Assembly: GCF_051307035.1 (NCBI RefSeq) | Contig: NZ_CP195536.1 | Span: 1,440,001 to 1,472,000, forward strand | Direction of reading: 5' to 3' | Origin: Psychrobacter sp. DM4 | GTDB lineage: Bacteria; Pseudomonadota; Gammaproteobacteria; Pseudomonadales; Moraxellaceae | Length of the DNA stretch: 32,000 nucleotides | Shown: in pieces, positions 6,230 through 26,004 of the stretch | How positions within the stretch are numbered: position 1 is the first letter of the stretch | Layout of the letters: every line of letters begins with the position of its first letter | The notes under the pieces: model-generated | Seen by the model: the letters and a program-made list of their open reading frames with translations, nothing else | What the model was told of the DNA's origin: nothing | Database searches by the model: none | Program-made: the position numbers and the translations under genes

Positions 6230-7216
6230 TTACACAAACTGTTGACGACGATAAGTGATACCGCGCTGCTCATAGACCTCATAAATAGCATTAAGAAAAT
6301 CAGGCACTTTTGGATGGACAACATCTTTGAGGGTATGTAAATAGATAGGAGAGGTGACGTTTTCGTGAATAAGCCGCTGATAACTTATTTGTTCAGCGCG
6401 TACCGTTTGTAAGCTTGCGGGCACCAGCGTAATGCCTTCACCAGCAGCAACTAAGCTTAGCGCCACCTGCAAGTCGCTTACCTTTGTTGTCATTAGCGGC
6501 GTGATACCATACTGCGCAAATAGATGAAGCAGCGGCTCAGTGATGGCGTTTTCGATAATGGGCGTTGCATTAATTGGCACTGCGCTTGGCGTTGCATCTG
6601 TCATTACAGAGATAGCAGGCGGCAAATGAGTTTGATGATAGAGGATCAAGCGATTATTCACCAAGTCTATTAAGCGCTGATCACGAGTATGAGCTAAGGG
6701 GTGGGTCTTGGGTAGCGCAACCATATAGCGCTCATGGCGTAGCAGGATCTGCTGAATCCAAGGGTCGCGATGCGCAAAACGTCCAAGTCCAACATCGATA
6801 TCACCGCTCTTTAGTGCCTCGATTTGTTGATAGGAGCTAATGTCTTTGAGATTGACCTCGATGTCAGGACGACGGCGCTTGAGCGCGGCGATAATCTCAG
6901 GCAGCAGCCCATATAACACTGATGGCACAAAACCGATAGTGAGCGCCGTACTTGGGTTAGATAGACGCTGGGTCATGCTAGTGACGGTCGCAAGCTCTGT
7001 TAGCACCGCACTGATTTTGTCATAAAAAAACTGCCCAGACTCGGTCAGTTGTAGGGGTCGATGATACCGATCAATCAGCTCGACACCTATGTCTGTCTCT
7101 AGCTGCTTTAGCATACGACTAAGACTAGGCTGAGAGATACCCGTGCTCCTCGCCGCCAAGCTAAAGCTTTGACAATCGGCAATAGCGATGAAAACGTTCA
7201 GCTGTTTGATGTCCAT
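6230..7216 (-). CDS. LysR-family transcriptional regulator
   Basis: N-terminal MDIKQLNVFIAIADCQSFSLAARSTGISQPSLSRMLKQLETDIGVELIDR is a canonical LysR winged-HTH. 328 aa with a LysR substrate-binding-type C-terminal region. Confidence 0.9.
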   Translation of the reverse strand: MDIKQLNVFIAIADCQSFSLAARSTGISQPSLSRMLKQLETDIGVELIDRYHRPLQLTESGQFFYDKISAVLTELATVTSMTQRLSNPSTALTIGFVPSVLYGLLPEIIAALKRRRPDIEVNLKDISSYQQIEALKSGDIDVGLGRFAHRDPWIQQILLRHERYMVALPKTHPLAHTRDQRLIDLVNNRLILYHQTHLPPAISVMTDATPSAVPINATPIIENAITEPLLHLFAQYGITPLMTTKVSDLQVALSLVAAGEGITLVPASLQTVRAEQISYQRLIHENVTSPIYLHTLKDVVHPKVPDFLNAIYEVYEQRGITYRRQQFV

Positions 7217-7404
7217 AAATAGTACTCTTAGAGTCTTACGTTGAACGACACAAGCGACTCCTTTTGCCCTTTATCAAATAAAACAATTAGATAAGACAAG
7301 GTGGAGGTAGAATCAGGCGCTGGCATAGTTATTGCTTATTTCCTAGTGTAAGAGGTGACAAACCATCAGTCGATGATAAGTCTATCTGAATTCTAACAGC
7401 AAAA

Positions 7405-8151
7405 ATGGCATGGTGTGCTATGAGTGACTTAAATAAAAATAAGATGCGTGATCAAGAAGATTTGAGTGATTCTAGCGATATAGAGCCTTACTCTATATAT
7501 GATGGCTTAAGTGCTGAAGAGCTAAGTTTTTTTGCAGATGGCGAGGTGCAAACAGTTGAGGATAATGCGGTAGAGATATCTGCTAAATACGATGATACTC
7601 AGCGATCTGACGATATAGACATTAATGACAGAATATCTGCTCATTTAACTCATAAAACAAGTCACGAGAGCCGCTTAGAAAAAAACAAAAAAACGAACAC
7701 CGATACTAAAAGTTTATTTTTTATTGGTTTAATCGTAGCGCTATTGATCAGTGCTACTGTGGCAGCAGCTATAGTACTCTTGAATATCACTGGAAAGATA
7801 GATTTAATGAGTGTGTTTTCAGGCGATACTAACGTAGAGAACGTCTCACCAGTCTTAGATGATACGACGGCTGTACCTATTAATGATAACTTAGATGCAG
7901 GTTTGGATGCAGATGTTAATAGTGAGCCCCTGCCAGTAACAGATACGGCCACAAACACTAACGAAGCAAATTTGGAGCTTTTGACAACCAAACCTGCTAG
8001 CGCGAACTTAGATAGTGCTATAGATAGTAATAATCAGCAAAGTAATGCTATACCGACACCTAATAATGATGACAGTCAGAACACAGAAATGAGCCTTGAA
8101 GAGTTTATGCAAGAGTCTGATGTCACGTTGTATCGCGATACTTCAGAATAA
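7405..8151 (+). CDS. Hypothetical acidic single-pass membrane protein (low-complexity D/E/N/S/T-rich)
   Basis: 248-aa ORF with one clear TM helix (LFFIGLIVALLISATVAAAIVLLNI) between two very acidic, polar segments. I recognise no family. The start is uncertain (ATG 7405 or ATG 7420) and no convincing SD is present. Confidence 0.5.
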   Translation: MAWCAMSDLNKNKMRDQEDLSDSSDIEPYSIYDGLSAEELSFFADGEVQTVEDNAVEISAKYDDTQRSDDIDINDRISAHLTHKTSHESRLEKNKKTNTDTKSLFFIGLIVALLISATVAAAIVLLNITGKIDLMSVFSGDTNVENVSPVLDDTTAVPINDNLDAGLDADVNSEPLPVTDTATNTNEANLELLTTKPASANLDSAIDSNNQQSNAIPTPNNDDSQNTEMSLEEFMQESDVTLYRDTSE

Positions 8152-8232
8152 GGTCTTATTTTTTATAAAGCATGGCTATCCGTTATTCTGTTGCCCGCTA
8201 ATAAATAATATGCCAGCTGTCATTTAGACAAT

Positions 8233-8268
8233 AAAAAAGCAGATACTGTTTAGAGTACCTGCTTTTTT
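8233..8268. terminator. Bidirectional Rho-independent terminator between convergent genes
   Basis: AAAAAAGCAGATAC-tgtttaga-GTACCTGCTTTTTT. The stem has one mismatch, with an A-run on one side and a T-run on the other. Confidence 0.6.
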
Positions 8269-8316
8269 ACGTGCAAAAACTCACTACTATAAATAGTTGC
8301 TATGATTAAATATTGA

Positions 8317-9444
8317 TTACTGCTGCGGGGTAATTAAATACTTCTCGCCAGTCGCTTGCTTACCATAAGCGGCGATAGACTTTAAGTGTAAAACCTCAGG
8401 TAATGACACTTCATGAGTATAGCTACTAGCAAAGGTGGTCGTGATCTCATCTGCCACGCGCTCACGCATTTTCATAACAGTTTTAGTGCCCAATTTACCG
8501 AGTGCATTGAACAACAAGAAACCGCCAACGCCCCAAGAAAAACCAAAGTTGCGATTAAGGACAATAGGACCTCGGTTTAGTCCGCCATATACATAGACTT
8601 GCTTAAAGGTATTAGAGCCGTACACGCTGTACTCTTCAACGTCGCGTGTGATAGCGGCTTCCATACAGTTAAGGATATCGCTAGTTAGCTGACCGCCGCC
8701 GATAGGATCAAAGGCGATAGTAGCGCCCGTCTCGATAATCGCTGTCGTCAAATCGGTGAGGAATGACTCGCTGCTTGAATTGACCACATATTTTGCGCCC
8801 ATATCACGTAGCAAAGTTTCTTGCTCTTCTTTACGCACGATGTTAATCAGATCAATACCATCAGCCATACAGATACGGTTGAGCATTTGACCAAGGCTTG
8901 AGGCGGCTGCCGCATGTACAATCGCTTTGTGACCTTCAGCGCGCATGGTTTCAGTCATTGCAAGTGCGGTTAGCGGATTAACAAAAGAGGACGCGCCTTC
9001 TTTAGCCGTTGTGCCTTCTTTTAATTCCAAGCAGCTTTGCACATTGACGCAGTGATATTGACGATACGTACCGCCACCGATGACCGCAACGGTTTTACCC
9101 ATTAAGGCTTGCGCCGCCGGTGAGGATCCTGCGGCGACCACAGTGCCAGCGCCTTCATTACCGACAGGCGTATCTTTGCCCACGCGGGTTTTGACGGCTG
9201 GCATGAACTTGGCAGGAACGTCTGCTGTGATAACTGGGTTTTGCTCGTTGCCTGATTGCGCGGCAGTAGACATGTCAGCGACGCTAAACAAAATCGCTAA
9301 ATCAGATGGGTTAAGCGGCGCAGCTTCAATACGTACCACAACTTGGTCGTCATTTGGCTGCGGCATCTCGATATCTTGCAAAGATACGGTAAGTTTGTTG
9401 TCAGCACTGATAGTAGAGATGAGTTGTATGTTTGTATCGCTCAT
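8317..9444 (-). CDS. MDR-superfamily NAD(P)H-dependent oxidoreductase (quinone-oxidoreductase / enoyl-reductase-like)
   Basis: 375 aa with the GroES-like N-terminal pattern (VVVRIEAAPLNPSDL) and a Rossmann segment (HAAAASSLGQML). It lies 93 nt downstream of the GST gene on the same strand, so the two are probably an operon. Confidence 0.75.
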   Translation of the reverse strand: MSDTNIQLISTISADNKLTVSLQDIEMPQPNDDQVVVRIEAAPLNPSDLAILFSVADMSTAAQSGNEQNPVITADVPAKFMPAVKTRVGKDTPVGNEGAGTVVAAGSSPAAQALMGKTVAVIGGGTYRQYHCVNVQSCLELKEGTTAKEGASSFVNPLTALAMTETMRAEGHKAIVHAAAASSLGQMLNRICMADGIDLINIVRKEEQETLLRDMGAKYVVNSSSESFLTDLTTAIIETGATIAFDPIGGGQLTSDILNCMEAAITRDVEEYSVYGSNTFKQVYVYGGLNRGPIVLNRNFGFSWGVGGFLLFNALGKLGTKTVMKMRERVADEITTTFASSYTHEVSLPEVLHLKSIAAYGKQATGEKYLITPQQ

Positions 9445-11592: not shown

Positions 11593-12066
11593 TTAACGAC
11601 AACTCTTAATTAAATGCTCTCGTAAAGATGCGCCGTCGTTATACAAGATAACATCCGCTATTTGGCAGACGCTCTCATCGCACACCAATTCATAATGCAC
11701 ATTGTCGCCTTGCGCTAAATTGACTTGAACCAATCCACTTGTCATCATTGAAAAGGTTTTGTCTTGCGTATAGTCAGGATCTTGCGAGCTCCACAGCACA
11801 TCATAGCCAATATGGCAGGATATTTGCTCTTTATCAAAATAATCTTGCTCAAGCTGCATAGCAGCCTGTAGCTCTGGATTGGCGTATTGTTGCAATGTAG
11901 ACGGATGATCTTGCCCTCGGTTGTGGCTATCTTGTTCATACATCTTAGCGATCGTTTCTACTTTTAGCGCAAAAGCGGTCTGTAGCGGCTCCGTTAGGTT
12001 TGCGCTTGCCGTTATTGCAAACACTCCTATGATAAGCACTGTTATTGACAAAATCGATTTTTGCAT
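11593..12066 (-). CDS. Hypothetical secreted protein (possibly DUF3828-like)
   Basis: 157 aa with an N-terminal signal peptide (MQKSILSITVLIIGVFAITASA) and four Cys in the mature part. The family assignment is a weak recollection only. Confidence 0.55.
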   Translation of the reverse strand: MQKSILSITVLIIGVFAITASANLTEPLQTAFALKVETIAKMYEQDSHNRGQDHPSTLQQYANPELQAAMQLEQDYFDKEQISCHIGYDVLWSSQDPDYTQDKTFSMMTSGLVQVNLAQGDNVHYELVCDESVCQIADVILYNDGASLREHLIKSCR

Positions 12067-12218
12067 GGTGTCCTGCGTTTATGCTATCTTAAATCATATA
12101 TTCATCAAAACACATAAAACGCTATCTCTACTTATAAGCATCATTTAAAAGGTCGCATTATTTAGGTTAAACGGACAACTACCGTTTGCTATATTCCCAT
12201 ACTGATAAGGATATTATT

Positions 12219-12881
12219 ATGATCTCATCTCGTTTTAATTTATCTTACCCTTGTCTTAAGTCCCTATTGACCGTAGCACTCTTTGTACCCCTTGTAGTGA
12301 CCAGCGGTTGTCAACTCTCTGCTGAGTCAAACGCGACGACACAGTCACCAAATAACACATCTACTCCCTCTGATATGAGCCAGCAAACCCTTATACAGCA
12401 AGCAATGCGTATTCAGCGTGCACTGGCCAATAACGCCTATACGAGAATCACCGATGATATTCATCCGACGCGTGGCGTGCGTTTTTCTATGTACGCCTAT
12501 ATTCAACCTGAATCCGACAAAGTGTTTAGCCGCGATCAATACGCACAATATCTCGATGAATCCAATATTCGCTTCACTTGGGGCCAAAAAGACGGTACTG
12601 GCGAGCTATATGTCACACCATTGCCAGATTATCTCAAAAATTGGGTGAAAGCCGACTATTATTACAACCAGTCAACGACCATCAACAGTAGCGCTGCCGT
12701 AGGAAATAGTATCAATAATTTGCATCAAATATATCAAAATTCAGACTATGTTGAGTTCTATAACCCCGGGGTCAATCCTGACTATGGTGGCCTGGACTGG
12801 CGGGCATTACGACTGGTATTTGATGAGTACCAAGGTAAGCGCTATCTAGTTGCTATTATCAGTGATAAATGGACAACATAA
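12219..12881 (+). CDS. Hypothetical lipoprotein
   Basis: ATG at 12219 with AAGGA 8 nt upstream. Signal peptide ends in a lipobox (LVVTSG-C), then comes an S/T/N/Q-rich linker. No family recognised. Confidence 0.6.
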   Translation: MISSRFNLSYPCLKSLLTVALFVPLVVTSGCQLSAESNATTQSPNNTSTPSDMSQQTLIQQAMRIQRALANNAYTRITDDIHPTRGVRFSMYAYIQPESDKVFSRDQYAQYLDESNIRFTWGQKDGTGELYVTPLPDYLKNWVKADYYYNQSTTINSSAAVGNSINNLHQIYQNSDYVEFYNPGVNPDYGGLDWRALRLVFDEYQGKRYLVAIISDKWTT

Positions 12882-13788: not shown

Positions 13789-14105
13789 TTATTGCTGCCA
13801 TCGCATCAAGGTTGCTAGGCAAATAGCGTCTAAATTATAAAAAACATTACGTCGAACTTGACGCTTTCCTTCCTGACGAACTACCGAGGAATACTCGGTA
13901 GTTGCCTCTTTAAGCAATTCACCTTCTTGATAAATGTTTTTTAGATGCAATCCAATCGTATCGGAATCCTTTTTAAACAGAGTCGCTAATTGTGCTTGCG
14001 AGAGCCACAAAGTATAGTGTTCAAAGTATAGTGTTCTAAGCGAATTTCGATTTCAGCTTGTCCATTTTCTAGCTGATATCTCTCTATTCTGCTAATAGAT
14101 TGCAT
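13789..14105 (-). pseudogene. RhuM-family (virulence/DNA-binding protein) N-terminal fragment, frameshifted and C-terminally truncated
   Basis: The track ORF 13789-14010 reads WLSQAQLATLFKKDSDTIGLHLKNIYQEGELLKEATTEYSSVVRQEGKRQVRRNVFYNLDAI, the N-terminal pattern I recognise from RhuM-family proteins. An ATG at 14105 opens MQSISRIERYQLENGQAEIEIRLEHYTL and joins this frame only if one copy of the 14-bp duplication is removed. The sequence leaves the family pattern right after YNLDAI and stops, so only about 100 residues remain of what I recall as a roughly 300-aa family. Confidence 0.6.
14008..14035. repeat. Perfect 14-bp tandem duplication (CAAAGTATAGTGTT x2)
   Basis: Read directly: 14008-14021 equals 14022-14035. 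14 is not a multiple of 3, so the duplication shifts the RhuM-like frame. Confidence 0.95.
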
Positions 14106-14333: not shown

Positions 14334-14816
14334 TTAACTGACGACCTTAGCAGTCGCATCTAATTGAGTCTCTACCACCCGAAGCGCCATTGACTTCCAA
14401 TCCAAATCCTTGTCATGGGTCAGCGCAACATGATGACTGATACTCACATAACCATGCACGATGGCCCAAACATCTAACGCCATTTGACGGCGCTCTGAAT
14501 GACTAGCCTCATCCGCTAAATATGAACCCGCTACTTGCACCAGCTTTGCAAAGGCTTCATCTCTTGCAGCGATAGCCTCCTCTGAGGGCACATAGCCTGC
14601 ATCAGACTCCCCAAAGATGAGCCGATAATGCGCCTCGTGCTGTTCGCCGACAGTAAGGTAACCCAAGCACGACTCTAACACTTGCGCTTTACTCGCCTTA
14701 CCATCGACAACGACATTCATAGCCTCGCTGACCAGATTGAAACCTTCGATATAAAGCGCGTCCAATATACCCTGCTTACCCTGAAAATGGCTATAGATGC
14801 CGATAATCGATGGTAC
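14334..14816 (-). pseudogene. TetR/AcrR-family regulator lacking its N-terminal HTH domain
   Basis: The 143-aa track ORF looks like a TetR C-terminal ligand domain (..AHYRLIFGE....VWAIVHGYVSI..). Extending the frame upstream gives only VPSIIGIYSHFQGKQGILDALY, which is the tail of the HTH region, and then a stop at 14817-14819. The roughly 40 residues that normally form helices 1-3 are absent. Confidence 0.55.
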
Positions 14817-15801
14817 TTATTTTAAGACCTCCGTGCCAGCCACACATACGCCAAGTTTTACGGTCGCTGATGGCGTCGAGTTTGCCCCTTTAAACGATTT
14901 ACCTTATTTAAAACAAGCGCGCAAAGGCTACGTCGTCATTGGTGGCGGCAAAACAGGTATCGATGCGGTACTCTGGCTACTTGGTAACGATGTCAATCCA
15001 GACCATATCACATGGATTATGCCAAGAGATGGCTGGCTTATCGACCGCAAAAATACTCAGCCCTCGCGTGAGTTTTTTGAGCAGACTATGGGCGCGCAAG
15101 CCAATCAAGCCGAAGCGGTTGCTACTGCCGAAAATATAGAGGATCTGTTTGATCGCTTAGAGCAAGGCGGTGTACTAATGCGTATTGATACGAATGTGCG
15201 CCCGCAGATGTTCCATGGCGCAACCGTTAGTACTGATGAGCTGACCGAGCTACGTCGAGTCAAAAACGTGGTACGTAAAGGCCGCGTGACTCGAATAGAC
15301 ATCGATCAAATTGTCTTTACTGAAGAAGATAGCATAGCGACGACGACCAATACTATGCATATTGATTGCTCTGCCCGCGCGGTACCCGTGACCGAGACTT
15401 ATGATGTCTTTCAAAAGAATAAGATTGTGGTACAAACGGTACGCTCTTATCAGCCCATTTTTAGTGCTGCTTTTATCGCGCACATCGAAGCCAGCTATGA
15501 TGATGAAGCGTTAAAAAACAAGCTATGCCAAGTAGTGCCTCTACCCAATCATGATACCGACTGGCTAACGGGTCTAGTGGCACAAATGCAAAACCATATG
15601 CGTTGGACTAAAGAACCTGATATCCGTGAGTGGCTACTAAGCAACCGCTTGGATGGCTTTACTCATCTCACGCAGGTAAGCTGTGAGACAACCCCTGAAC
15701 AGATGGCGATACTCATGCGTCTAAAAGCGGCAGGACCAAAAGCTGCTGCGAATATGCCAAAATTGATGTTTGAGGTGATGAAAATAACGGCCGAACGGTA
15801 G
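14797..15801 (+). pseudogene. FAD/NAD(P)-binding oxidoreductase (flavin monooxygenase-like) lacking its N-terminal FAD-binding segment
   Basis: The only dinucleotide-binding motif, YVVIGGGKTGIDAVLWLL, sits at residue 45. That looks like the second (NAD(P)) motif of two-dinucleotide-binding flavoproteins. No N-terminal GxGxxG is present and a stop (TAG 14794-14796) lies immediately upstream. There is no SD or promoter space because the TetR remnant abuts it. Confidence 0.5.
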
Positions 15802-15933: not shown

Positions 15934-17024
15934 ATGTTGGACACTAAGATGCAAGAATTCCAAACCAATAAGGCTGAGTTGACCCAGTCGCGAATAGTAG
16001 AGACGGATAAGCAAACAATTAATGACGGCGAAGTATTGGTAAAAGTCGATCGCTTTGCTTTTACCGCGAATAACATCACTTACGCAGTAATGGGCGATCA
16101 TCTGCGCTATTGGCAGTTCTTCGCGCCTAATGGCGATAACGCAGAACAATGGGGCATCATTCCCGTTTGGGGTTTTGCCGATGTCGTTGAATCAAACAAC
16201 GATGACGTCCCTATAGGTGATAGGCTTTTTGGATATTTCCCGCCAGCCACTGAACTTGTGATTAATCCTGTCAAAGTGGATGGTTCAAGCCTCATGGATG
16301 GTAGCGCTCATCGCTCGCATCTACCGCCAGGCTATAACTTATATCAACGCGTCAATGATGAAGCAGGCTACGACCGCGCTTATGATAATCAGCGCATGCT
16401 ACTTGCCGTATTACACCTAACTGCGTTTTGTATCCACGATATGCTGACGAGCAACAACTGGTACGAAGCTGAGCAAGTCATCGTAATTAGTGCTTCTAGT
16501 AAGACTAGTTGGGGTATGGGCTGGTCGATGACGCAGATGCACCAGCAGCGATTGGTCTGACCTCTAGCCGTCATATAGACTTTGTACAGTCGATCGATGC
16601 CTATAACAATGTGCTGAGCTATGATGATATCGAAAACATTGACGCAAGCAAACCAACGGTCATCATCGATATGTCTGCTAATACTGATGTGCTAAGCCGC
16701 TTACACACGCATTTGGGTGATAATATGCGCTTTACGAGCAATGTTGGACTCACCCATTGGGACGAGCCGCGCCAGACCAAGGGTATTATCGCCGCGCGTA
16801 GTGAGCAGTTTTTTGCGCCCAGTCAAATTCAAAAGCTGATAAAAGAATGGGGCGCAGAAGAATTTAATAAGCGCTCCATGCGCTATATTATGGCATGCAC
16901 TGCCAAAACGAGTACCTGGCTAAAAATTAAAGATCTAAAAAGTATTGAGGAGTTATCGACCGTTTACAAAGACGTTTGTGATGGCAAGATACCTGCTAAT
17001 GAGGGTTTAGTCGTGGTCATGTGA
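15934..17024 (+). pseudogene. DUF2855-family protein, split by a -1 frameshift near 16507-16512
   Basis: ORF 15934-16560 (..RFAFTANNITYAVMGDHLRYWQFFAP...WGIIPVWGFADVVES..IGDRLFGYFP..) and ORF 16509-17024 read as the two halves of one protein. Frame 1 ends ISASSKTS and then turns to nonsense. The other frame continues LGYGLVDDADAPAAIGLTSS. One missing base in ACTAGTTGGGG would restore a single 362-363-codon frame. Good AAGGAG SD before 15934. Confidence 0.6.
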
Positions 17025-17843: not shown

Positions 17844-18044
17844 CCATTCGCCTTCTTTATTACTTTTTAATATATGGGACTCGTTGAGGTTGACAAGTCG
17901 TAAATTAAGTTTAACGTCTAAAATAAAATCTAACAAAAACAATTTATTAATATCAAACCTCTGTTGTGTAATACCCTATAGACAGGTTATAGTCATAGCA
18001 ATTCTATGATATCGGCTTAGTTTTTACTCATTGCAAGACTAAGT

Positions 18045-18073
18045 TTGTCAACGATAGCCTGTCTATTTATCAT
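18045..18073 (+). promoter_or_regulatory. Candidate sigma70-type promoter of the Anbu operon (TTGTCA-17 nt-TATCAT)
   Basis: -35 TTGTCA at 18045-18050, a 17-nt spacer, and -10 TATCAT at 18068-18073, about 35 nt upstream of the preferred start at 18109. Sequence match only. Confidence 0.3.
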
Positions 18074-18108
18074 AATTTGTCACTCAACCAAAGATGCGTG
18101 AGGTATTC

Positions 18109-20403
18109 ATGACCAAAGAAACAACTCAATCTGCAAAACAAAATCAAAGCCAAGAGCAAGCCACGACGACAGATAAAGGTAATGGGCAGCAGCAAACACA
18201 AAGCCAATCCCAAAAAAAGCCCCATCCAAAACAGCAAAGCTTTGATGAATTATTAAGTAGTAAGGGCAAATATCGTCCCGTTGCAAAGTCCGTTGGCGAC
18301 TGGTTAGACAATACCAGCATGGATGCTATTAACCATCTCAATGAGCAAGCCGAAAATATCTTTTATCGTAAAGGCGTCACTTTTACGGTCTACAGCGATG
18401 CTGAAAATATTGAACGTATGATACCTTTTGATATCATTCCGCGCATTATTTCAGGTAGCGAATGGCAAACGATAGAAAAAGGCTGTAAGCAGCGTATCAC
18501 CGCATTGAATGCCTTTTTACATGACATTTATCATGATCAAGCCATTATGAAAGCGGATGTAGTCCCTGCCAGCTACGTCTATGCTAGTGGTTGTTATGAG
18601 CCATGGATGATGGGGATTGAGCTGGATAAGCCGATTTACTCCCATATCAGTGGTATCGATCTGATCCGTGATGAGTCTGGTAAATTTTGTGTGTTAGAGG
18701 ATAATCTACGCACGCCATCAGGGGTGTCCTACATGCTTGAGAGCCGTAACATATCAGAGATGCTATTATCCGATATGTTTGCTCATACGCCGATTTTGGG
18801 TATCAGTGATTATCCAAACCGTCTCAAAAAATGCCTTGCCAGCTCAACGAGCAAATACGATCCACAAATCGTCATCTTGACTCCAGGGCGCTTTAATAGT
18901 GCTTATTATGAGCATGCGTTTTTGGCACATGAGATGAGTGTGCCCTTAGTACACGGCTATGATTTGGTGGTTGAGGACAGCAAAGTCTATATGCAAGGGA
19001 TTCGCGGCAAAGTTCAAGTCGATATCATTTATCGCCGTATCGATGATCCTTTTATTGATCCATTAGCGTTTGAGTCCAATTCTATCTTAGGGGTTTCAGG
19101 GCTGATGAGTGCTTATCGCGCGGGTAATGTCGTCATTGTCAACGCTCCGGGTACTGGCGTGGCTGATGACAAGAGTCTTTATCCTTTCGTACCCGACATG
19201 ATTAAGTTCTACTTAGATGAAGAGCCTATTCTGCCAAATATCGAGACTTATCAGTGCCGTAAGCCTGATGAGCTCAAATACGTCCTGGATAATCTAGACA
19301 AATTGGTCGTAAAAGAAACTCAAGGCTCAGGCGGTTATGGGATGCTCATTGGTCCGACATCCAGCAAAAAAGAGATTGAGGACTATCGCAAGCGCTTACT
19401 TGATAATCCAGCCGGATTTATTGCTCAGCCTACTATTTCACTCTCTACCAATCCTACTGCGGTAGCCGATGGTATCGCGCCCCGTCATATTGATTTGCGC
19501 CCCTTTATCTTAAGTCATGGTGATGGTTCAGTCGATATTGTACCGGGTGGTTTGACCCGCGTGGCGATGGTTGAGGGCTCACTCGTTGTCAACTCCTCTC
19601 AAGGCGGCGGTATCAAAGACACTTGGGTCATTGACGATAGTGATCTAGACAATCCTGATGCTGATAAATGCAATCCTGTCTCACTCGATACGGCAGCTGC
19701 CAGTCACGCCGAATATTACGATCGCGTACAGCCTACAGAAGCCGGCTATGAACAGCTAGATGATGCGCCAATGATCCTGCTGTTATCGACTGCCAGCCAT
19801 CTGATTTGGTTGGGTCGATACAGTGAGCGGCTTTATTATTACGATAGTCTGATGAAGCAGCTGATCAAAGGCGATTTCAAAAAATCACAGGTACAGCATC
19901 TGATCACTCATTTGGGCTTTGAGGCCGACGCTGATGAGTCTTTTAAGGCCATGAAAGCGCAAATGATGACGGACTTAGAACAAACCATCATTCCTAGTGT
20001 GGTGCACTCGATTGAGACCAATGTTCAAGAAGCCAAAGGCGTCATCGGTAAAGACACCGCTGAGCTGTACAACTTGATTAAACGGCTTTCAAGCGCTGGG
20101 ACTTATCGAGCAGCGACCTTGCAGTTGCATGCTTGTAACGCTGCTATGAAACAAGAGCATCCCACCGTGACTTGTTTTTGGCAATTAGGCCGACACTTTG
20201 AGCAGCTTGAGCGCGCGGTATTATTAAATGAGGACTCACTAGCCGCCAGTTTAGAATTTAAGCATTGGATCAACGAGCTACCAGAGAATACGCGCTGGCG
20301 TGAGCTGACTCGCCTGACCAATCAGATGATTAGATCTAAGCAAATTAGTGACTTTGATTTGATCAGCCAAGAGTTCAATATCATACTGCGCCAAGGGGTT
20401 TAA
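18109..20403 (+). CDS. Fusion protein: circularly permuted ATP-grasp (type 2) domain plus alpha-E domain
   Basis: Preferred start is ATG 18109, with GAGG 5 nt upstream. Residues about 60-510 match the permuted ATP-grasp pattern (GVTFTVYSD..ERMIPFDIIPRII..VLEDNLRTPSGVSYMLE..LTPGRFNSAYYEHAFLAHEM..IIYRRIDDPFIDPL..NAPGTGVADDKSLYPFVP..LVVKETQGSGGYGML..RHIDLRPF..PGGLTRVA..LVVNSSQGGGIKDTWV). After an acidic linker, 19771-20400 carries the alpha-E hallmark twice (HLIWLGRYSERL and FWQLGRHFEQLERA). Confidence 0.85.
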   Translation: MTKETTQSAKQNQSQEQATTTDKGNGQQQTQSQSQKKPHPKQQSFDELLSSKGKYRPVAKSVGDWLDNTSMDAINHLNEQAENIFYRKGVTFTVYSDAENIERMIPFDIIPRIISGSEWQTIEKGCKQRITALNAFLHDIYHDQAIMKADVVPASYVYASGCYEPWMMGIELDKPIYSHISGIDLIRDESGKFCVLEDNLRTPSGVSYMLESRNISEMLLSDMFAHTPILGISDYPNRLKKCLASSTSKYDPQIVILTPGRFNSAYYEHAFLAHEMSVPLVHGYDLVVEDSKVYMQGIRGKVQVDIIYRRIDDPFIDPLAFESNSILGVSGLMSAYRAGNVVIVNAPGTGVADDKSLYPFVPDMIKFYLDEEPILPNIETYQCRKPDELKYVLDNLDKLVVKETQGSGGYGMLIGPTSSKKEIEDYRKRLLDNPAGFIAQPTISLSTNPTAVADGIAPRHIDLRPFILSHGDGSVDIVPGGLTRVAMVEGSLVVNSSQGGGIKDTWVIDDSDLDNPDADKCNPVSLDTAAASHAEYYDRVQPTEAGYEQLDDAPMILLLSTASHLIWLGRYSERLYYYDSLMKQLIKGDFKKSQVQHLITHLGFEADADESFKAMKAQMMTDLEQTIIPSVVHSIETNVQEAKGVIGKDTAELYNLIKRLSSAGTYRAATLQLHACNAAMKQEHPTVTCFWQLGRHFEQLERAVLLNEDSLAASLEFKHWINELPENTRWRELTRLTNQMIRSKQISDFDLISQEFNIILRQGV

Positions 20404-20473
20404 TTAGGCATTAACTAAACGCCAAACCATTAAACGTGAGACTAAAGAATAGAGATAACAACAGGATGCTATT

Positions 20474-21259
20474 ATGAAACTTCAAATCAGCCATCAAACC
20501 AATTATTACTATGATGAGCTTGCACAGCGTAGTGTACAGTATATTCGCATGACGCCTATGCAGCTACCGCATCAGGTCATTCATAAGTGGGATGTGATGC
20601 TACCTAAAGTTGCGACCAACCAAAAGGACGGCTTCGGTAACGACTGGCTTACTCTGAGTCGCAATGAGGCGCATAATAATTTGCAGATGCAAGCTTCAGG
20701 TATTGTTGAGATTAATACTGAGACACAGCGCCTTGAGGACATGGATCATGTCCCCTACTTGCTATTTACGGTACAGACGCCACTGACTAAATGCTCGAAT
20801 GAGATGCGCGCATTTGCAGCACCTTTTTTGAAAAAGCCTACGCTCGATAGTCTAAAGACGATGGCCAATGAGCTGATCATGAAAATGCCTTTTGTAAAAA
20901 ACGTCACTCATGTCGGAACGACAGCTGCTGAGTCTTTTGCCACTAGCGCTGGTGTGTGTCAAGATCATACGCATGTGTTTATCAGTATGCTGCGTGATCA
21001 GCAAATACCTGCCCGCTATGTATCAGGCTATCTTTATGATGACACCGAAAATCATATGGCAAGCCACGCTTGGGCGGAGGCTTATATGGATGGATATTGG
21101 TACACTTTTGATATCTCAAATCAAGCCTTTCAACCAAATTCACACGTCTATGTCGCTATTGGTCGCGACTATTTAGATACGGCTCCTGTACGAGGTGTAA
21201 GAATGGGCGGCGGCTATGAAAATCTTTACAGTCAAGTACTAGTTACTCGGTTATCATAG
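20474..21259 (+). CDS. Transglutaminase-like cysteine protease-fold protein
   Basis: 261 aa. The N-terminal MKLQISHQTNYYYD is typical of the bacterial transglutaminase N-domain. Catalytic-triad context is GVCQDH (Cys codon 20957-20959), SHAWAEAY and FDISN. AGGA SD 8 nt upstream. Confidence 0.85.
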   Translation: MKLQISHQTNYYYDELAQRSVQYIRMTPMQLPHQVIHKWDVMLPKVATNQKDGFGNDWLTLSRNEAHNNLQMQASGIVEINTETQRLEDMDHVPYLLFTVQTPLTKCSNEMRAFAAPFLKKPTLDSLKTMANELIMKMPFVKNVTHVGTTAAESFATSAGVCQDHTHVFISMLRDQQIPARYVSGYLYDDTENHMASHAWAEAYMDGYWYTFDISNQAFQPNSHVYVAIGRDYLDTAPVRGVRMGGGYENLYSQVLVTRLS

Positions 21260-21286
21260 CGCACTTTTATTTATTGAGAAACGACA

Positions 21287-22027
21287 ATGACTTATTGCGC
21301 TGCTATTCGTCTTAAAGATGGTATGGTTTTTGCGAGTGATACCCGTACTAACGCGGGCATCGATCATATTTCAACCTTCAGAAAAATCTATCAGTATGGT
21401 ATTGAAGGTGAGCGTTTTATAGTTTTGCAAACTGCTGGTAGTTTAGCAACCTCACAAGCCGTTTTTACTAAATTACAAAGCGATATTGACCAAAAACTTG
21501 AAAGCAACCTTAATACTGTAGAGACATTATTTGACGCCGCGCAAATGGTTGGCGAATGTATGCGTAGCGTGATGAATCATGCCAAAGAAGTGGCTAATGC
21601 GGCTAAGGACGGCGGATTTACGAGCTCTTTTATGTTGGGTGGTCAGATAAAAGGGCAAAAACCTGAGCTTTATAAGATTTATCCCGAGGGTAACTGTATT
21701 CGAGCTACAGAGGATACGCCTTTTTTCCAGTTAGGCGAGAGTAAATATGGTAAGCCTATTCTCGATAGAGCAGTCACTTATGATACCGACGTCAATCACG
21801 CAGCCCGTGCTTTAATGTTGTCGTTTGATTCGACGATTCATTCAAACTTGTCTGTCGGTATGCCGATAGATTTTGTGCTATATAGAAATGATAGCTATAC
21901 CCTACCAAAAGGTCGCCGTGTTGATGAGCGCGACGAGTATTTCAACACCATTCGTCATCAGTGGTCAGATGTGCTGCGTAATACTTTAGTCGAGCTGCCC
22001 GCCTGTCCTGATAATTATTGGGATTAA
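21287..22027 (+). CDS. Anbu-type proteasome beta-subunit homologue (peptidase T1 family)
   Basis: 246 aa beginning MTYCAAIRLKDGMVFASDTRTNAGIDHISTFRKI. Thr2 directly after the initiator Met and the SDxRTNAG block are the Anbu signature as I recall it. It lies 27 nt after the transglutaminase-like gene. Confidence 0.85.
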   Translation: MTYCAAIRLKDGMVFASDTRTNAGIDHISTFRKIYQYGIEGERFIVLQTAGSLATSQAVFTKLQSDIDQKLESNLNTVETLFDAAQMVGECMRSVMNHAKEVANAAKDGGFTSSFMLGGQIKGQKPELYKIYPEGNCIRATEDTPFFQLGESKYGKPILDRAVTYDTDVNHAARALMLSFDSTIHSNLSVGMPIDFVLYRNDSYTLPKGRRVDERDEYFNTIRHQWSDVLRNTLVELPACPDNYWD

Positions 22028-22371
22028 AGGATGATAATATGACCACTGGTACTTAGAGGGCGTGCCATTTTCCCAAAATTTTGAGCCATCTTTATACTTT
22101 TAACTCTCTGTTGTCTTCGATACTCACTAGGCGAGATCTCATATACTCGCCTAAAGGCTTGGCTAAAAGTTGAGTTCGACGAGTAGCCGACCATCTCACC
22201 AATCTGAGCGATACTACTATGCTGCAGGCGCAAGTGGCGCGCGCCAAGACGTAGCCGGTAGTCGGTCAAATAAGTCAGTGGAGGTATACCAACGACGTCT
22301 TTGAAACGCTGAGTAAAACCTGAACGTGACATTCCAGCCGCTTTAGTTAAGCGCGCTAAACCAGAGGTGTT
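22024..22371 (-). pseudogene. AraC/XylS-family regulator remnant (C-terminal HTH half only)
   Basis: The track ORF gives MSRSGFTQRFKDVVGIPPLTYLTDYRLRLGARHLRLQHSSIAQIGEMVGYSSNSTFSQAFRRVYEISPSEYRR, which is the two HTH units of AraC. Extending upstream adds only NTSGLARLTKAAG before a stop at 22372-22374. No sensor or dimerisation domain remains. Confidence 0.6.
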
Positions 22372-22637: not shown

Positions 22638-23579
22638 TCAAAAGTTAACCTTAATACTCTTTCTACTAAATCCTAGTTGCACATTCGCCAGTATCAGTCC
22701 CGATAAGATAAGCACCATCGCTAGCATCTTCCACCATGTCACCACCTCCCCAGTCAGTAGCACTGAGGCAATCATTCCAAAGATAGGAACGAGCAAAGCA
22801 AAAGGCATAACTTTGGAGGCTGTATTTTGACTGAGTAGATGCGCCCATAGTCCAAAACCGATCAGGGTTGAGATATAGACGATAAACCCAAGCGACAGCC
22901 AAGACTTGAGTGAGGCTCCAGTAAACGTTGCGAGCTGCCAGGCATCTCGCTCAAATATTAAAGAAGATAGGATCAAAATAACGCAAGCGATTAGACCGCC
23001 CCATACCACTAATGATAGCGCAGACAATTTTGATGCTTTGTTCTGGCTAGTAGCAGGCAAGATAGTAGACACACTAGTACTCTGCTGCGTAGAAGCCTGC
23101 TTTGATGCGATATTGCCAAAGCTCCAACCAATCGCAGCAATCAAGATACAAATAAATCCAATCAAAGGCATATCACCGCCGAGGTTTAACGCAATCACAC
23201 TCAGTCCTAGCACGCCGACTAGCATACCGGCGATTTGCATGCGACTCACTGATTCGCCCAAGATGACATAGGCCAGCAATACCGTGATAAAAATCTGCAT
23301 TTGTAACAACAGTGCCGTCAACCCTGCAGATGCACCCAAATGCATAGCGGTGAATACAAAAGCGTACTGCATAACAAAGGTACCGATTGCATAGATAAAT
23401 AACGTACGGTTAAACTTGGGCGGCTTCAGAAATAGCACTAACGGCACAGCGGTAAAGAAAAAGCGCATGGCGGTCAGCATTAATGGCGGGAAGCTCTCAA
23501 GGCTCCAGGCGATAAACGTGAAGTTCACACCCCAAATAAAGGCAACCAATACAGCTAATGCAATATGGATTGGGGTCAT
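22638..23579 (-). CDS. EamA/DMT-superfamily transporter (EamA/YdeD-like exporter)
   Basis: 313 aa with about 10 TM segments. The N-terminal ..LAVLVAFIWGVNFTFIAWSLESFPPLMLTAMRFFF.. parallels the E. coli EamA N-terminus as I recall it. It carries an S/T/Q-rich insert (KQASTQQSTSVSTILPATSQNKASK) between the two EamA repeats. Confidence 0.8.
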   Translation of the reverse strand: MTPIHIALAVLVAFIWGVNFTFIAWSLESFPPLMLTAMRFFFTAVPLVLFLKPPKFNRTLFIYAIGTFVMQYAFVFTAMHLGASAGLTALLLQMQIFITVLLAYVILGESVSRMQIAGMLVGVLGLSVIALNLGGDMPLIGFICILIAAIGWSFGNIASKQASTQQSTSVSTILPATSQNKASKLSALSLVVWGGLIACVILILSSLIFERDAWQLATFTGASLKSWLSLGFIVYISTLIGFGLWAHLLSQNTASKVMPFALLVPIFGMIASVLLTGEVVTWWKMLAMVLILSGLILANVQLGFSRKSIKVNF

Positions 23580-23827: not shown

Positions 23828-25504
23828 TTACGAGTTACCACCGCGATTGCCACTGTTTGAGCGGCCTTGACCGCCCGAGCGGTTTGCTGGACGACCTTGG
23901 CTACCACTTGGACGACCACGGCCTGTTGCAGCACGGTCACCGCGCGGTACGCCAGTACCATCACTACGGCTTGGACCACCCGTACGCTTGCCTTGATACG
24001 GCTTGCCACCAGAGCGCTCATTTGGCTTACCAGATGAGTCGCGCGGCTTGCCTTGATAACCACTGTCGTTGCTGGCTCGCTGAGAAGTACCATTGCTGCT
24101 ATCACTTGAGCGACCACGGCTCTGCGCGCCGCTACTTGACTTGCCTGCGTAACCACCGCCATTACCTGAACGGCCACGGCCACTACCGCCGCCGTTTGAG
24201 CGACCACGACCACGTCCGCGACCTTTGGGTTTATTTTCACTTGGTACGTAAGTTTTCTTAGGCTCCATGCCCGCTATGACGCAGACTTCCATCTTACGAT
24301 CGAGGTAGCGGTTGATGGCGTTAAGCTGCGGACGGTCATCCATGCTACATAGGCTAATAGCGACACCCGTACGACCAGCACGGCCACAGCGGCCAATACG
24401 GTGAACGTAATCTTCGGTCTGACGCGGCAGATCATAGTTGATGACGTGTGATAGAGCTGGCACATCAAGACCACGAGCGGCGACATCGGTTGCTACTAGG
24501 ATTTTGCATTTGCCGTTACGCAGGTCTTGTACGATGCGGTTACGCTTGCTTTGTGGCAAATCGCCGTGCAAGAAGCTGGCTTTATGACCTTGCTCTTGTA
24601 GTGATTTAGCCAGTTTTTCAGTGCTGCGCTTGGTGGCGGCAAATATGATGATTTGCTCCATTTCAGGCTGGCAGACGAGTGTGTCTAGGATCTTGTTTTT
24701 GTGATTAAAGTCATCACAGTAATAGACAGTCTCATCGATGTGAGCCGATTCAACTTTGATAGAGACGCGCTCAGGATTGTTGGTAAAGCTGGCAGCGATT
24801 TTGCCGACAGGACCATCCCAAGTCGCTGAACACATAATGGTTTGACGATCGGTTGGCGCTGCACGTAGGATGTCACTGATGTCATCAGCAAAACCCATAT
24901 CCAGCATACGATCTGCTTCATCAAGTACTAGAACCTCTAGGCTAGACAAATCAACTCGGCCTGCATTGATATGGTCAAGCAAGCGACCTGGCGTTGCGAC
25001 GATAACTTGTACGCCTTTTTTGAGCGCTGTGATCTGACCATTGTATGGGGCGCCGCCAACTAAAGGCACACAAAATACGCCACGCATGTCTTTTGAATAC
25101 GTACGTACGCTGTCATGGACTTGCTGAGCAAGTTCACGAGTTGGCGTTAAGATAAGCGCTTTAGTCAATTTATCAAAGCTAGTTGAGCGGCTCAAACGAT
25201 CAAGTACAGGAATTACGAATGCGGCTGTCTTACCACTACCTGTTTGCGCAGATAATAAAAGGTCGCGACCTGCTAGAGCAAAGGGAATGGCCTGTGCTTG
25301 AATAGGTGTAGGATTGGTGTAGCCACTGCGATCAAGCGCAGATAAAATAGGTTTGGCAATGTTAAGGTCAGCGAAGGTGACTTGGTTTTCGTCAGTAGTA
25401 TCACTGGCAGTAGCGTCTGTAGTAGGCGCTTGAGTAGCAGATGAGGTGTCAGTGCTTTCGATGATGCCGTTTTGGGCGGCGATTGTAGATAAGATATCAG
25501 TCAT
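23828..25504 (-). CDS. rhlE: DEAD-box ATP-dependent RNA helicase with a long C-terminal Arg/Gly/Ser-rich tail (RhlE-like)
   Basis: Q-motif region (FADLNIAKPILSALDRSGYTNPTPIQ), motif I AQTGSGKT, motif Ia PTRELA, motif II DEAD, motif III SAT and motif VI HRIGRCGRAG. I prefer the ATG at 25504 (AAGG upstream). The last 134 codons (23831-24232) are RG/RGG/SG-rich. Confidence 0.88.
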   Translation of the reverse strand: MTDILSTIAAQNGIIESTDTSSATQAPTTDATASDTTDENQVTFADLNIAKPILSALDRSGYTNPTPIQAQAIPFALAGRDLLLSAQTGSGKTAAFVIPVLDRLSRSTSFDKLTKALILTPTRELAQQVHDSVRTYSKDMRGVFCVPLVGGAPYNGQITALKKGVQVIVATPGRLLDHINAGRVDLSSLEVLVLDEADRMLDMGFADDISDILRAAPTDRQTIMCSATWDGPVGKIAASFTNNPERVSIKVESAHIDETVYYCDDFNHKNKILDTLVCQPEMEQIIIFAATKRSTEKLAKSLQEQGHKASFLHGDLPQSKRNRIVQDLRNGKCKILVATDVAARGLDVPALSHVINYDLPRQTEDYVHRIGRCGRAGRTGVAISLCSMDDRPQLNAINRYLDRKMEVCVIAGMEPKKTYVPSENKPKGRGRGRGRSNGGGSGRGRSGNGGGYAGKSSSGAQSRGRSSDSSNGTSQRASNDSGYQGKPRDSSGKPNERSGGKPYQGKRTGGPSRSDGTGVPRGDRAATGRGRPSGSQGRPANRSGGQGRSNSGNRGGNS

Positions 25505-26004
25505 GAGTTGCCTTGGTAGTATGGGCTGCTGAACATTCAGCATGCCAGTTGCCTACCACTGATAACCGCGCATCACACAACTTAGATCATCTATTGATGA
25601 TATTTGCTACTAAAAGCAGTCTAAAAAAGTTGTCTGTTGTCTGACGTATTTTGGTGGTAGCGCCGAGTGTCTTATCCTTGATTGTTATAAACGTTTTATC
25701 AAAGCTTTAATCCAAAGCCGATAAAATCAAATAACACCCAATTTGGCACATAGGCCAGTAGATAAGATATGAGTCAAAAATAATAGGATTATTTCAGAAC
25801 ACAAAATCATCGGCAACAATTACTCATGGTCATCCTAGACCCAAAATCGCAGGCGATGTTATCAATCTCATAATTCACACAATATTGAATTGCGTGGCGA
25901 CATAGTATAGCACAGTAAAAGAGGTCTTCCTGTCTTTTTTAGAGCAATATTAAAGATTATCGATGACTATTATAAATGGGCGCTCAACACCGCTATTAGG
26001 CAAG

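Follow-up and report, generated by a model that had tools for sequence, protein, structure and literature searches.

The window analysed here is a 32,000-nucleotide (nt) stretch of the chromosome of Psychrobacter sp. DM4, and our subject within it is a group of three genes ending in Anbu, a homologue of the proteasome beta subunit. Judged from its sequence, the locus is almost certainly a three-gene version of the known Anbu-1 cluster, with four modules (ATP-grasp ligase, Alpha-E, transglutaminase-like protein and Anbu) found in that order and in the same direction (Table 1). An earlier reading of the same DNA, referred to below as the original prediction, had described three co-directional genes separated by gaps of 70 and 27 nt, which the coordinates of the + strand open reading frames (ORFs) bear out. 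It had also joined an Alpha-E domain to the ligase of gene 1; this domain is indeed present, but the prediction missed that it is a shortened, lineage-restricted form whose fusion to the ligase departs from the canonical four-gene arrangement. Reference loci fetched for comparison carry names from L001 to L081.

Table 1 Features of the Anbu locus, in positions of the window (aa, amino acids)
Feature	Start	End	Strand	Description
Candidate sigma70-type promoter	18045	18073	+	TTGTCA-17-TATCAT; 10/12 matches, best in 17500-22700
Gene 1	18109	20403	+	764-aa fusion of circularly permuted ATP-grasp ligase and short Alpha-E domain
N-terminal low-complexity tail of gene 1	18109	18240	+	44 aa, 13 Gln, rich in Thr/Lys/Ser
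Circularly permuted ATP-grasp catalytic core	18241	19638	+	residues 45-510
Inter-domain linker	19639	19770	+	residues 511-554
Short Alpha-E domain	19771	20403	+	residues 555-764, 210 aa
Gene 2	20474	21259	+	261 aa, transglutaminase-fold Cys/His/Asp enzyme, Bact_transglu_N + Transglut_core
Gene 3	21287	22027	+	246 aa, Anbu-1 proteasome beta-subunit homologue

The three genes and their products

The original prediction began the locus at 18045, a position that is out of frame with gene 1 and turns out to be the first base of a sigma70-like -35 box. The longest open frame of gene 1 in the ORF list (18094..20403, + strand) also reaches beyond the gene, whose translation starts at the ATG at 18109, with GAGG at 18100-18103, 5 nt before it. 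We assign this start because the resulting 764-aa product is 100% identical to a Psychrobacter sp. DM4 protein recovered by database search, because seven other Psychrobacter loci keep both this ATG and the GAGG but not the ATG at 18094, and because there is no in-frame start between 18109 and the conserved core. Each downstream gene is likewise preceded by a Shine-Dalgarno sequence (AGGA, 8 nt 5' of gene 2). A scan of the locus for terminator-like sites found none in either intergenic gap; the three sites that it returned fall within the coding sequences of genes 2 and 3 and do not exceed chance (3 vs 3.6 +/- 2.0 expected), and the sequence 3' of gene 3 shows no terminator-like folding (z = +0.76). 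Genes 1 to 3 are presumably co-transcribed as an operon. The whole window contains no Rfam match at gathering thresholds, no tRNA and no tmRNA. A defence system was considered and rejected, with 0 matches in PADLOC-DB at E <=0.01 for all three proteins.

Matches to Pfam models and solved structures placed gene 1 in the permuted ATP-grasp family, and matches to solved structures placed gene 3 in the proteasome/Anbu family, as the original prediction had supposed. Gene 1 matches the Pfam model CP_ATPgrasp_2 over its entire length (profile positions 1-374 of 374; E = 6.6e-151; 502.9 bits against a cutoff of 32), its core aligns with the full length of PDB 3N6X (E = 2.2e-169), and it keeps all 138 core positions at which conservation among 61 homologues reaches at least 97%. 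The protein is thus predicted, with near certainty, to be a circularly permuted ATP-grasp amide ligase. For gene 2, the motifs GVCQDH, SHAWAE and FDISN, named earlier as the Cys/His/Asp context of a transglutaminase fold, stand at residues 160, 197 and 212, and the corresponding C162, H198 and D213 are each shared by at least 97% of the 57 homologues compared. Pfam finds Bact_transglu_N (E = 4.5e-15) and Transglut_core (E = 2.3e-18), and PDB 3ISR, a transglutaminase-like putative cysteine protease, is matched at 1.7e-12 with its Cys and His/Asp motifs aligned. Gene 2 is therefore almost certainly a member of the transglutaminase-like superfamily (PF01841 with PF08379) and a predicted Cys/His/Asp hydrolase.

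The product of gene 3 aligns with solved Anbu structures over nearly its whole length: with 5LOX from P. aeruginosa over residues 2-244 of 246 (E = 7e-82), including the conserved YF..IR.QWS, with 5LOY, an Anbu-1 consensus design (Cons-Anbu), at 1.8e-77, and with 5NYJ, 5NYW and 5NYF at about 1e-69 (weakest 4.5e-69). It is 56% identical to P. aeruginosa Anbu (Pa-Anbu). As had been noticed, the protein begins MTYC, which places the catalytic Thr directly after the initiator Met without a propeptide. Thr2, Asp18 and Lys33 (precursor numbering; Thr1, Asp17 and Lys32 in the mature protein) are identical in gene 3, Pa-Anbu and Cons-Anbu, and conservation at these three positions is at least 97% among 80 homologues. 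In mature Pa-Anbu the S1 pocket of Anbu-1 consists of T20, F30, T48, L52 and S55, whereas the pocket of Anbu-2 is basic (PMC5666114); the equivalent T21, F31, T49, L53 and S56 of gene 3 (precursor numbering) are identical to those of Pa-Anbu. Since similarity extends over the full length and both the catalytic residues and the complete Anbu-1 S1 pocket are present, we assign gene 3 to Anbu-1, and there can be little doubt that it is an Anbu, that is, a predicted N-terminal-threonine hydrolase of the proteasome family. Anbu proteins form an open dodecameric split ring in which proteasome inhibitors bind at Thr1 (PMC5666114).

A single-chain ligase with a short Alpha-E domain

The Alpha-E part of gene 1 is recognised only at the borderline by Pfam (PF04168; 21.3 bits vs a cutoff of 20.8) and covers profile positions 5-162 of 294, so gene 1 does not contain a complete Alpha-E domain of about 294 positions. 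A profile of the short family was aligned by hhalign to one of 33 canonical Alpha-E proteins (~310 aa) from other Anbu loci, giving a probability of 98.9% and an E of 1.1e-17, with positions 1-186 of the short form aligned to 1-216 of 318 in the canonical form. The domain is therefore a genuine Alpha-E without roughly its C-terminal third (~100 residues). Its motifs are WLGRYSER (canonical WxxRYxER) and LGRHFEQLE (canonical LGxxxE(R)xD); throughout the short family, the W and both R residues of WLGRYxxR and the G and E of the central LGxxxExxD are invariant, while the E of the first 'ER' is not; R570, R574 and E698 of gene 1 are among the invariant residues. An AlphaFold2 model of the short Alpha-E is a nine-helix bundle (predicted local distance difference test (pLDDT) 87, predicted template modelling score (pTM) 0.87), for which Foldseek returned no solved structural relative (best E 0.6).

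An exhaustive search of 1.84 billion representative proteins with the last 254 residues of gene 1 found only 25 relatives, nearly all of which are either fusions or proteins of about 200 aa that start exactly at the position of Met555 (MxLLLSTAxxLxWLGRY...). A profile search gave 77 short Alpha-E members, all named ones coming from Psychrobacter or Acinetobacter, and as far as source names show, the short form is confined to these two genera. In Acinetobacter, the gene for the 200-aa Alpha-E overlaps the next gene by 4 nt, which leaves neither space nor an ORF for the missing third. A stand-alone entry of 208-211 aa from Psychrobacter sp. PP-21 was discarded as an alternative gene call, the DNA of that strain having one uninterrupted gene 1 frame; P0121 (218 aa, 68% identical) is a candidate stand-alone entry in Psychrobacter. 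Our literature search found no paper on the short Alpha-E family or on the Psychrobacter fusion.

The linker between the two domains ends immediately before Met555, the residue aligned with Met1 of the stand-alone 200-aa proteins, and measures 45-63 aa in 88 Psychrobacter homologues. Its first half is hypervariable, and its second half (19705-19770, residues ~533-554) carries the genus-conserved motif HxxYYDRVQPxExGYExLxDAP, which has no counterpart in Acinetobacter or canonical ligases, since these stop straight after the catalytic core. The N-terminal tail is hypervariable as well: among 120 Psychrobacter homologues its length ranges from 20 to 90 aa (median 62), and it is rich in Ser, Gln, Lys and Thr with runs of SQSQSQ, although no tandem repeat underlies the low-complexity tail in the DM4 strain. 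The Acinetobacter ligase has a polar N-terminal extension of ~40 aa that is not Gln/Ser-rich, and ligases from the other taxa among the compared loci have no such extension. Structure prediction for full-length gene 1, in which the ligase part was covered only by shallow Psychrobacter sequences, gave a mean pLDDT of 44.6 and a pTM of 0.34.

To place this architecture, 80 fetched loci around Anbu homologues from other genomes were classified by their upstream genes. The canonical four genes are found in 34 loci, and four genes with a 200-aa Alpha-E in 11 (ten from Acinetobacter and one, L011, from a proteobacterial metagenome-assembled genome); the ligase/short-Alpha-E fusion occurs in 6 loci, all from Psychrobacter, a ligase and Alpha-E without the small transglutaminase gene in 7-9, and no partner genes within 4.2 kb upstream in 15. 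The full partner set, in the same order and on the same strand, thus accompanies Anbu in 51/80 loci from gamma-, beta- and alpha-proteobacteria, in agreement with the original prediction of a known conserved cluster, and the neighbourhood comparison also showed that the genes are kept together in the Moraxellaceae genera Psychrobacter and Acinetobacter. No further conserved partner beyond the four known modules was found around the 80 Anbu loci, where all other neighbours differ. The Anbu operon was described by Valas & Bourne (PMC3235984), and the canonical form, known from the PA1733 region of P. aeruginosa, from PP_2685-PP_2688 of P. putida and from Yersinia bercovieri (see also Fuchs et al. 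2017, Piasecka et al. 2018), has the same four modules in the same order as the Psychrobacter locus. In the canonical operon these are four genes with an Alpha-E of ~310 aa, whereas Psychrobacter has three genes, with ligase and an Alpha-E of ~210 aa on one polypeptide, no sigma54-type promoter and, in DM4, a Gln-rich tail of 44 aa on the ligase. The Psychrobacter locus is consequently an architectural variant of the Anbu operon and not a different system.

Ligase and Alpha-E are fused in 8/8 intact Psychrobacter loci examined (the window, L001-L006 and L081). Close relatives are the Acinetobacter loci (L009, L013-L020, L026) and L011, which share the short Alpha-E of ~200 aa (24-30% identical by BLAST, recovered by the family profile at E up to 1e-70) and whose transglutaminase-like protein and Anbu are 45-54% identical. 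In these loci, unlike in Psychrobacter, ligase and short Alpha-E are encoded by separate genes, which in Acinetobacter are adjacent. In Acinetobacter sp. ANC 3903 (L009) both genes lie in the same frame with one stop codon and 24 nt between them, an arrangement that shows how easily a fusion could arise. In a paralogous cluster at L036, an 852-aa protein joins CP_ATPgrasp and a full-length Alpha-E (E = 3.9e-65) in a single chain, and this fusion is independent of that in Psychrobacter. Such repeated fusion provides a Rosetta-stone argument for the physical and functional coupling of ligase and Alpha-E as one unit.

At three of the fetched loci (L008 1361-4678, L036 8770-15638, L072 2085-5387), Anbu lies beside a protein of ~1100 aa that combines a transglutaminase with DUF2126 ('putative amidoligase'). 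L036 also holds, with its paralogous 852-aa fusion, a second transglutaminase gene, so two related ligase/hydrolase systems can cluster around one Anbu. Clusters of this paralogous ATP-grasp-Alpha-E/transglutaminase/DUF2126 type, of which M. tuberculosis Rv2566-Rv2569c is presumably an example, follow the same domain logic as the Anbu operon. They include L036 12178-15638 and B. cenocepacia I35_5080-83 (PMC5491218), and they differ in that the ligase is only 29-34% identical, Alpha-E is full length and the partner is the 1100-aa transglutaminase-DUF2126 protein, not necessarily Anbu; in Burkholderia the paralogous cluster is nitrogen-regulated, like Anbu operons. By functional analogy only, the Pup- and ubiquitin-proteasome systems likewise set an ATP-dependent amide ligase and a de-modifying hydrolase near a threonine protease of the proteasome family. 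The Anbu cluster, by contrast, has neither a gene for a Pup- or ubiquitin-like tag nor an AAA+ unfoldase, its ligase has a circularly permuted ATP-grasp fold in place of PafA/glutamine-synthetase-like or E1/E2/E3 enzymes, and Anbu is an open split ring whereas the proteasome is a closed barrel (PMC5666114).

Upstream region, selection and neighbouring genes

Anbu operons of other bacteria have been linked to nitrogen regulation. P. putida PP_2685-PP_2688 is strongly induced under nitrogen limitation, which has been attributed to NtrB/NtrC (PMC7801951, PMC8050072), and the related cluster of B. cenocepacia depends on NtrC and sigma54 (PMC5491218). We scanned for TGGCAC-N5-TTGCW, allowing <=2 mismatches with the GG/GC cores kept, and found a sigma54-type site 20-260 nt 5' of the ligase core in 41/53 non-Psychrobacter loci, mostly at 53-107 nt; at the background rate of the scan (1.5e-4 per nucleotide), ~0.036 sites would be expected per locus. 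Sites were present in 9/10 Acinetobacter loci, the tenth (L026) being cut by a contig end, and L011 has none upstream of its ligase. Neither the window nor any of the six Psychrobacter loci scanned has a sigma54-type site upstream of gene 1, and the sole nearby match at the DM4 operon was rejected as a promoter, since it lies inside gene 1 on the wrong strand. From these motif counts, the sigma54 link seems to be general for Anbu operons and to have been lost in Psychrobacter. The contrast supports a broad connection between Anbu operons and nitrogen starvation, and at the same time indicates that this connection is not obligatory.

Transcription of the Psychrobacter operon seems instead to start from another promoter, possibly one of sigma70 type. 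The candidate in Table 1 is the best match in its region, which holds 16 sigma70-like sites vs 12.1 +/- 3.0 in shuffled sequence, that is, no excess. Its -10-like ATCATAA (18069-18075) is conserved across eight Psychrobacter loci, and its -35 is not. The same eight loci share two non-coding blocks: one at ~17950-17995, CTTGTTGT...GT(T)ATAGTC, with a possible direct repeat GTTGTRT / GTTRTAG, and one at 18069-18108, in which ATCATAA is followed by ACTTTACCAAGGATACGTGAGGTATTTATG. These may represent a regulator site (~17950-17995) and the 5' leader, respectively. Elsewhere in the window, TGGCATAGTTATTGCT at 7321-7336 (+) is a near-consensus sigma54-type motif with one mismatch. It lies 69 nt 5' of an uncharacterised 248-aa ORF (7405-8151, +), in the intergenic region that separates this ORF from a LysR gene (6230-7216, -). 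If this site is real, the genome uses sigma54, and the missing motif would be specific to the Anbu operon. Our literature search found no data on the Anbu cluster in Psychrobacter and nothing of use on rpoN or ntrC in this genus.

Compared with four other Psychrobacter species, all three genes show a non-synonymous divergence (dN) of 0.04-0.10, a saturated synonymous divergence (dS) and a dN/dS ratio (omega) of ~0.02-0.05; by part, dN/dS is ~0.05 for gene 1, ~0.03-0.04 for Alpha-E, ~0.02 for gene 2 and ~0.03-0.04 for gene 3. The genes are therefore maintained by strong purifying selection despite their broken neighbours. The linker, at 0.14-0.35, is relaxed relative to the domains that flank it. 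In Psychrobacter immobilis NCIMB361 (L007, ~6800-8650), a deletion has removed genes 1 and 2 together with the first 31 codons of Anbu, and an M90 peptidase gene and a RhuM-like fragment abut the truncated Anbu.

Several genes around the cluster in DM4 are incomplete. Upstream, the DUF2855 gene (15934-17024, +) is split into overlapping ORFs in different frames (15934-16560 and 16509-17024), whose products match profile positions 1-169 and 172-334; it is a single frame in L001, and the split in DM4 is either a frameshift pseudogene or a sequencing error. A TetR-family gene (14334-14765, -) retains only its C-terminal domain (TetR_C_33). Relative to L003, ~650 bp have been lost between window positions 14804 and 14803, covering the N-terminal helix-turn-helix (HTH) and the intergenic region, and the truncated gene now lies 31 nt from a divergent 334-aa ORF (14797-15801, +). 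This ORF contains a dinucleotide-binding-like motif, GGGKTG, stands beside TetR and DUF2855 in other Psychrobacter and is one of four ORFs of 157-334 aa without a Pfam match, the others being 11593-12066 (-), 12186-12881 (+) and 510-1046 (+). A 73-aa ORF at 13789-14010 (-), also without a Pfam match, may be a RhuM-type fragment; a stretch homologous to it (83% identity) adjoins the deletion in L007.

Downstream, an AraC-family remnant (22024-22332, -) encodes 102 aa with HTH_18 only and no ligand-binding domain; a stop codon lies 13 codons 5' of its Met, and its own stop overlaps that of Anbu by 4 nt. Neither this remnant nor the adjoining EamA transporter gene (22638-23579) occurs in the other Psychrobacter loci. 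A DEAD-box helicase gene follows (23828-25543, -), with a long Gly/Arg/Ser-rich C-terminal tail whose low-complexity DNA yields spurious overlapping ORFs of 134-139 aa, one per strand.

Candidate functions of the cluster

The best overall explanation of the locus, and on balance a probable one, is a working Anbu-1 cluster. For its mechanism we propose more tentatively, as a real possibility short of a probability, a ligate-and-hydrolyse cycle on proteins or peptides. The ligase, with Alpha-E as its obligatory non-catalytic partner, would use ATP to activate a carboxylate as an acyl-phosphate and would join it to an amine, so that a protein or peptide receives a tag of the amino-acid or peptide type. 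The transglutaminase-fold enzyme would trim or remove the amide-linked modification, and polypeptides that are marked or unfolded would be degraded by the open ring of Anbu, with no AAA+ unfoldase involved. NtrC/sigma54 would switch the module on during nitrogen starvation in most Proteobacteria, which points to salvage of proteins or peptides. In this scheme, what is tagged and with what, the sequence of the steps and the part played by Alpha-E are our inference. Several published observations are consistent with it: phosphate is released from ATP by the Yersinia ATP-grasp protein (PMC6376114), Anbu-1 binds proteasome inhibitors and its identical sites, arranged in a ring, speak for a protease function (PMC5666114), and PMC3495828, with reference to Iyer et al. 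2009, sets out a tag-and-remove model in which ATP-grasp, Alpha-E and transglutaminase-like proteins take part.

A number of points weigh against this explanation. As the original prediction held, the operon is a known one without an established function: in 2021 there was still no function known for Anbu (PMC8665760), and no Anbu operon has a known substrate, tag or phenotype. Anbu proteins from Yersinia, Hyphomicrobium and Pseudomonas are inactive on standard proteasome substrates, and Anbu neither pulled down the other operon proteins nor stimulated the ATP-grasp protein (PMC6376114), while Fuchs et al. rate peptide synthesis as less likely than plain degradation (PMC5666114). The ligase most resembles small-molecule ligases, 3N6X having been deposited as a 'putative glutathionylspermidine synthase'. 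With the sigma54 motif absent, the link to nitrogen starvation is not transferable to Psychrobacter, and the sigma70-like site resembles the consensus in a region where such resemblance is no commoner than in shuffled sequence. The loss in L007 further means that the cluster is dispensable in at least one strain.

Some of these points would fit a different chemistry, in which the cluster serves small-molecule amide metabolism: ligase and Alpha-E would make or recycle a gamma-glutamyl-, polyamine- or dipeptide-type amide for nitrogen scavenging, both hydrolases would be amidases that release ammonia or amino acids, and Anbu would not be a processive protease on tagged proteins. The annotation of 3N6X, the closest solved relative of the ligase, is in line with this, as are the inactivity of Anbu on proteasome peptide substrates and the existence of other N-terminal nucleophile hydrolases that are amidases or amidotransferases (PMC6376114). 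A role in nitrogen scavenging would also suit the NtrC/sigma54-controlled nitrogen-starvation response of the operon and the paralogous cluster in Pseudomonas and Burkholderia (PMC7801951, PMC5491218) and the widespread sigma54 motifs upstream of the ligase. We nevertheless consider it rather unlikely, given that Anbu-1 binds peptide-like inhibitors at Thr1 in a proteasome-type S1 pocket (PMC5666114) that is conserved in gene 3, that a dodecameric ring of identical sites would be unusual for a small-molecule amidase, and that members of the transglutaminase-like family are usually interpreted as peptidases (PMC3495828).

Two further explanations deny the locus a joint or present function. The three genes could be mere neighbours with independent functions and an accidental synteny, to which the lack of stable complexes among the Yersinia operon proteins (PMC6376114) and the 15/80 Anbu loci without partner genes in the 4.2 kb upstream lend some colour. 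This is very improbable, however, in view of the order and strand shared by 51/80 loci whose other neighbours all differ, the short gaps (70 and 27 nt), both free of terminator-like sites, and the co-induction of the genes in P. putida (PMC7801951). The broken neighbours of the cluster (frameshifted DUF2855, truncated TetR, AraC HTH fragment and RhuM-like fragment) and the losses in P. immobilis could alternatively suggest that the locus is a decaying remnant, but all three ORFs are full length with every catalytic residue intact, and the low omega values against the four other species effectively refute decay, which we regard as the least credible explanation of all.

A working Anbu-1 cluster, with a proposed ligate-and-hydrolyse cycle, is the explanation we retain, and the Anbu cluster remains among the few widespread proteasome-family systems without a known function despite structures of Anbu and of an ATP-grasp homologue, a problem that the DM4 locus leaves unsolved. 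Its proteins are already in public databases as 'circularly permuted type 2 ATP-grasp protein' and 'alpha-E domain-containing protein', and apart from a modest lineage-specific architecture, with precedent in the paralogous system, DM4 has a typical representative of a known, functionally unsolved system. A more far-reaching idea, which we consider improbable, is that the Psychrobacter Anbu system has been rewired into a constitutive or differently regulated protein-turnover module without NtrC/sigma54, and that the lineage features of the ligase are functional. The Moraxellaceae-specific parts concerned would be the hypervariable Gln/Ser/Lys-rich disordered tail, the YYDRVQP...GYE linker segment and the minimal Alpha-E; the Gln/Lys-rich tail may, for example, supply the transglutaminase-fold enzyme with a substrate or tag donor in cis, or thread into the Anbu ring. 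If this were true, the substrate logic of Anbu operons, long sought, would become visible in the single-chain ligase. Independently of such rewiring, the locus defines a minimal Alpha-E of ~200 residues, reduced to two thirds of the domain with few invariant Arg/Glu/Trp positions. The natural single chain of ligase and Alpha-E speaks for joint action of the two as a unit, whose interaction the published pull-downs with Anbu as bait did not address, and it could ease expression, biochemistry and structure determination.

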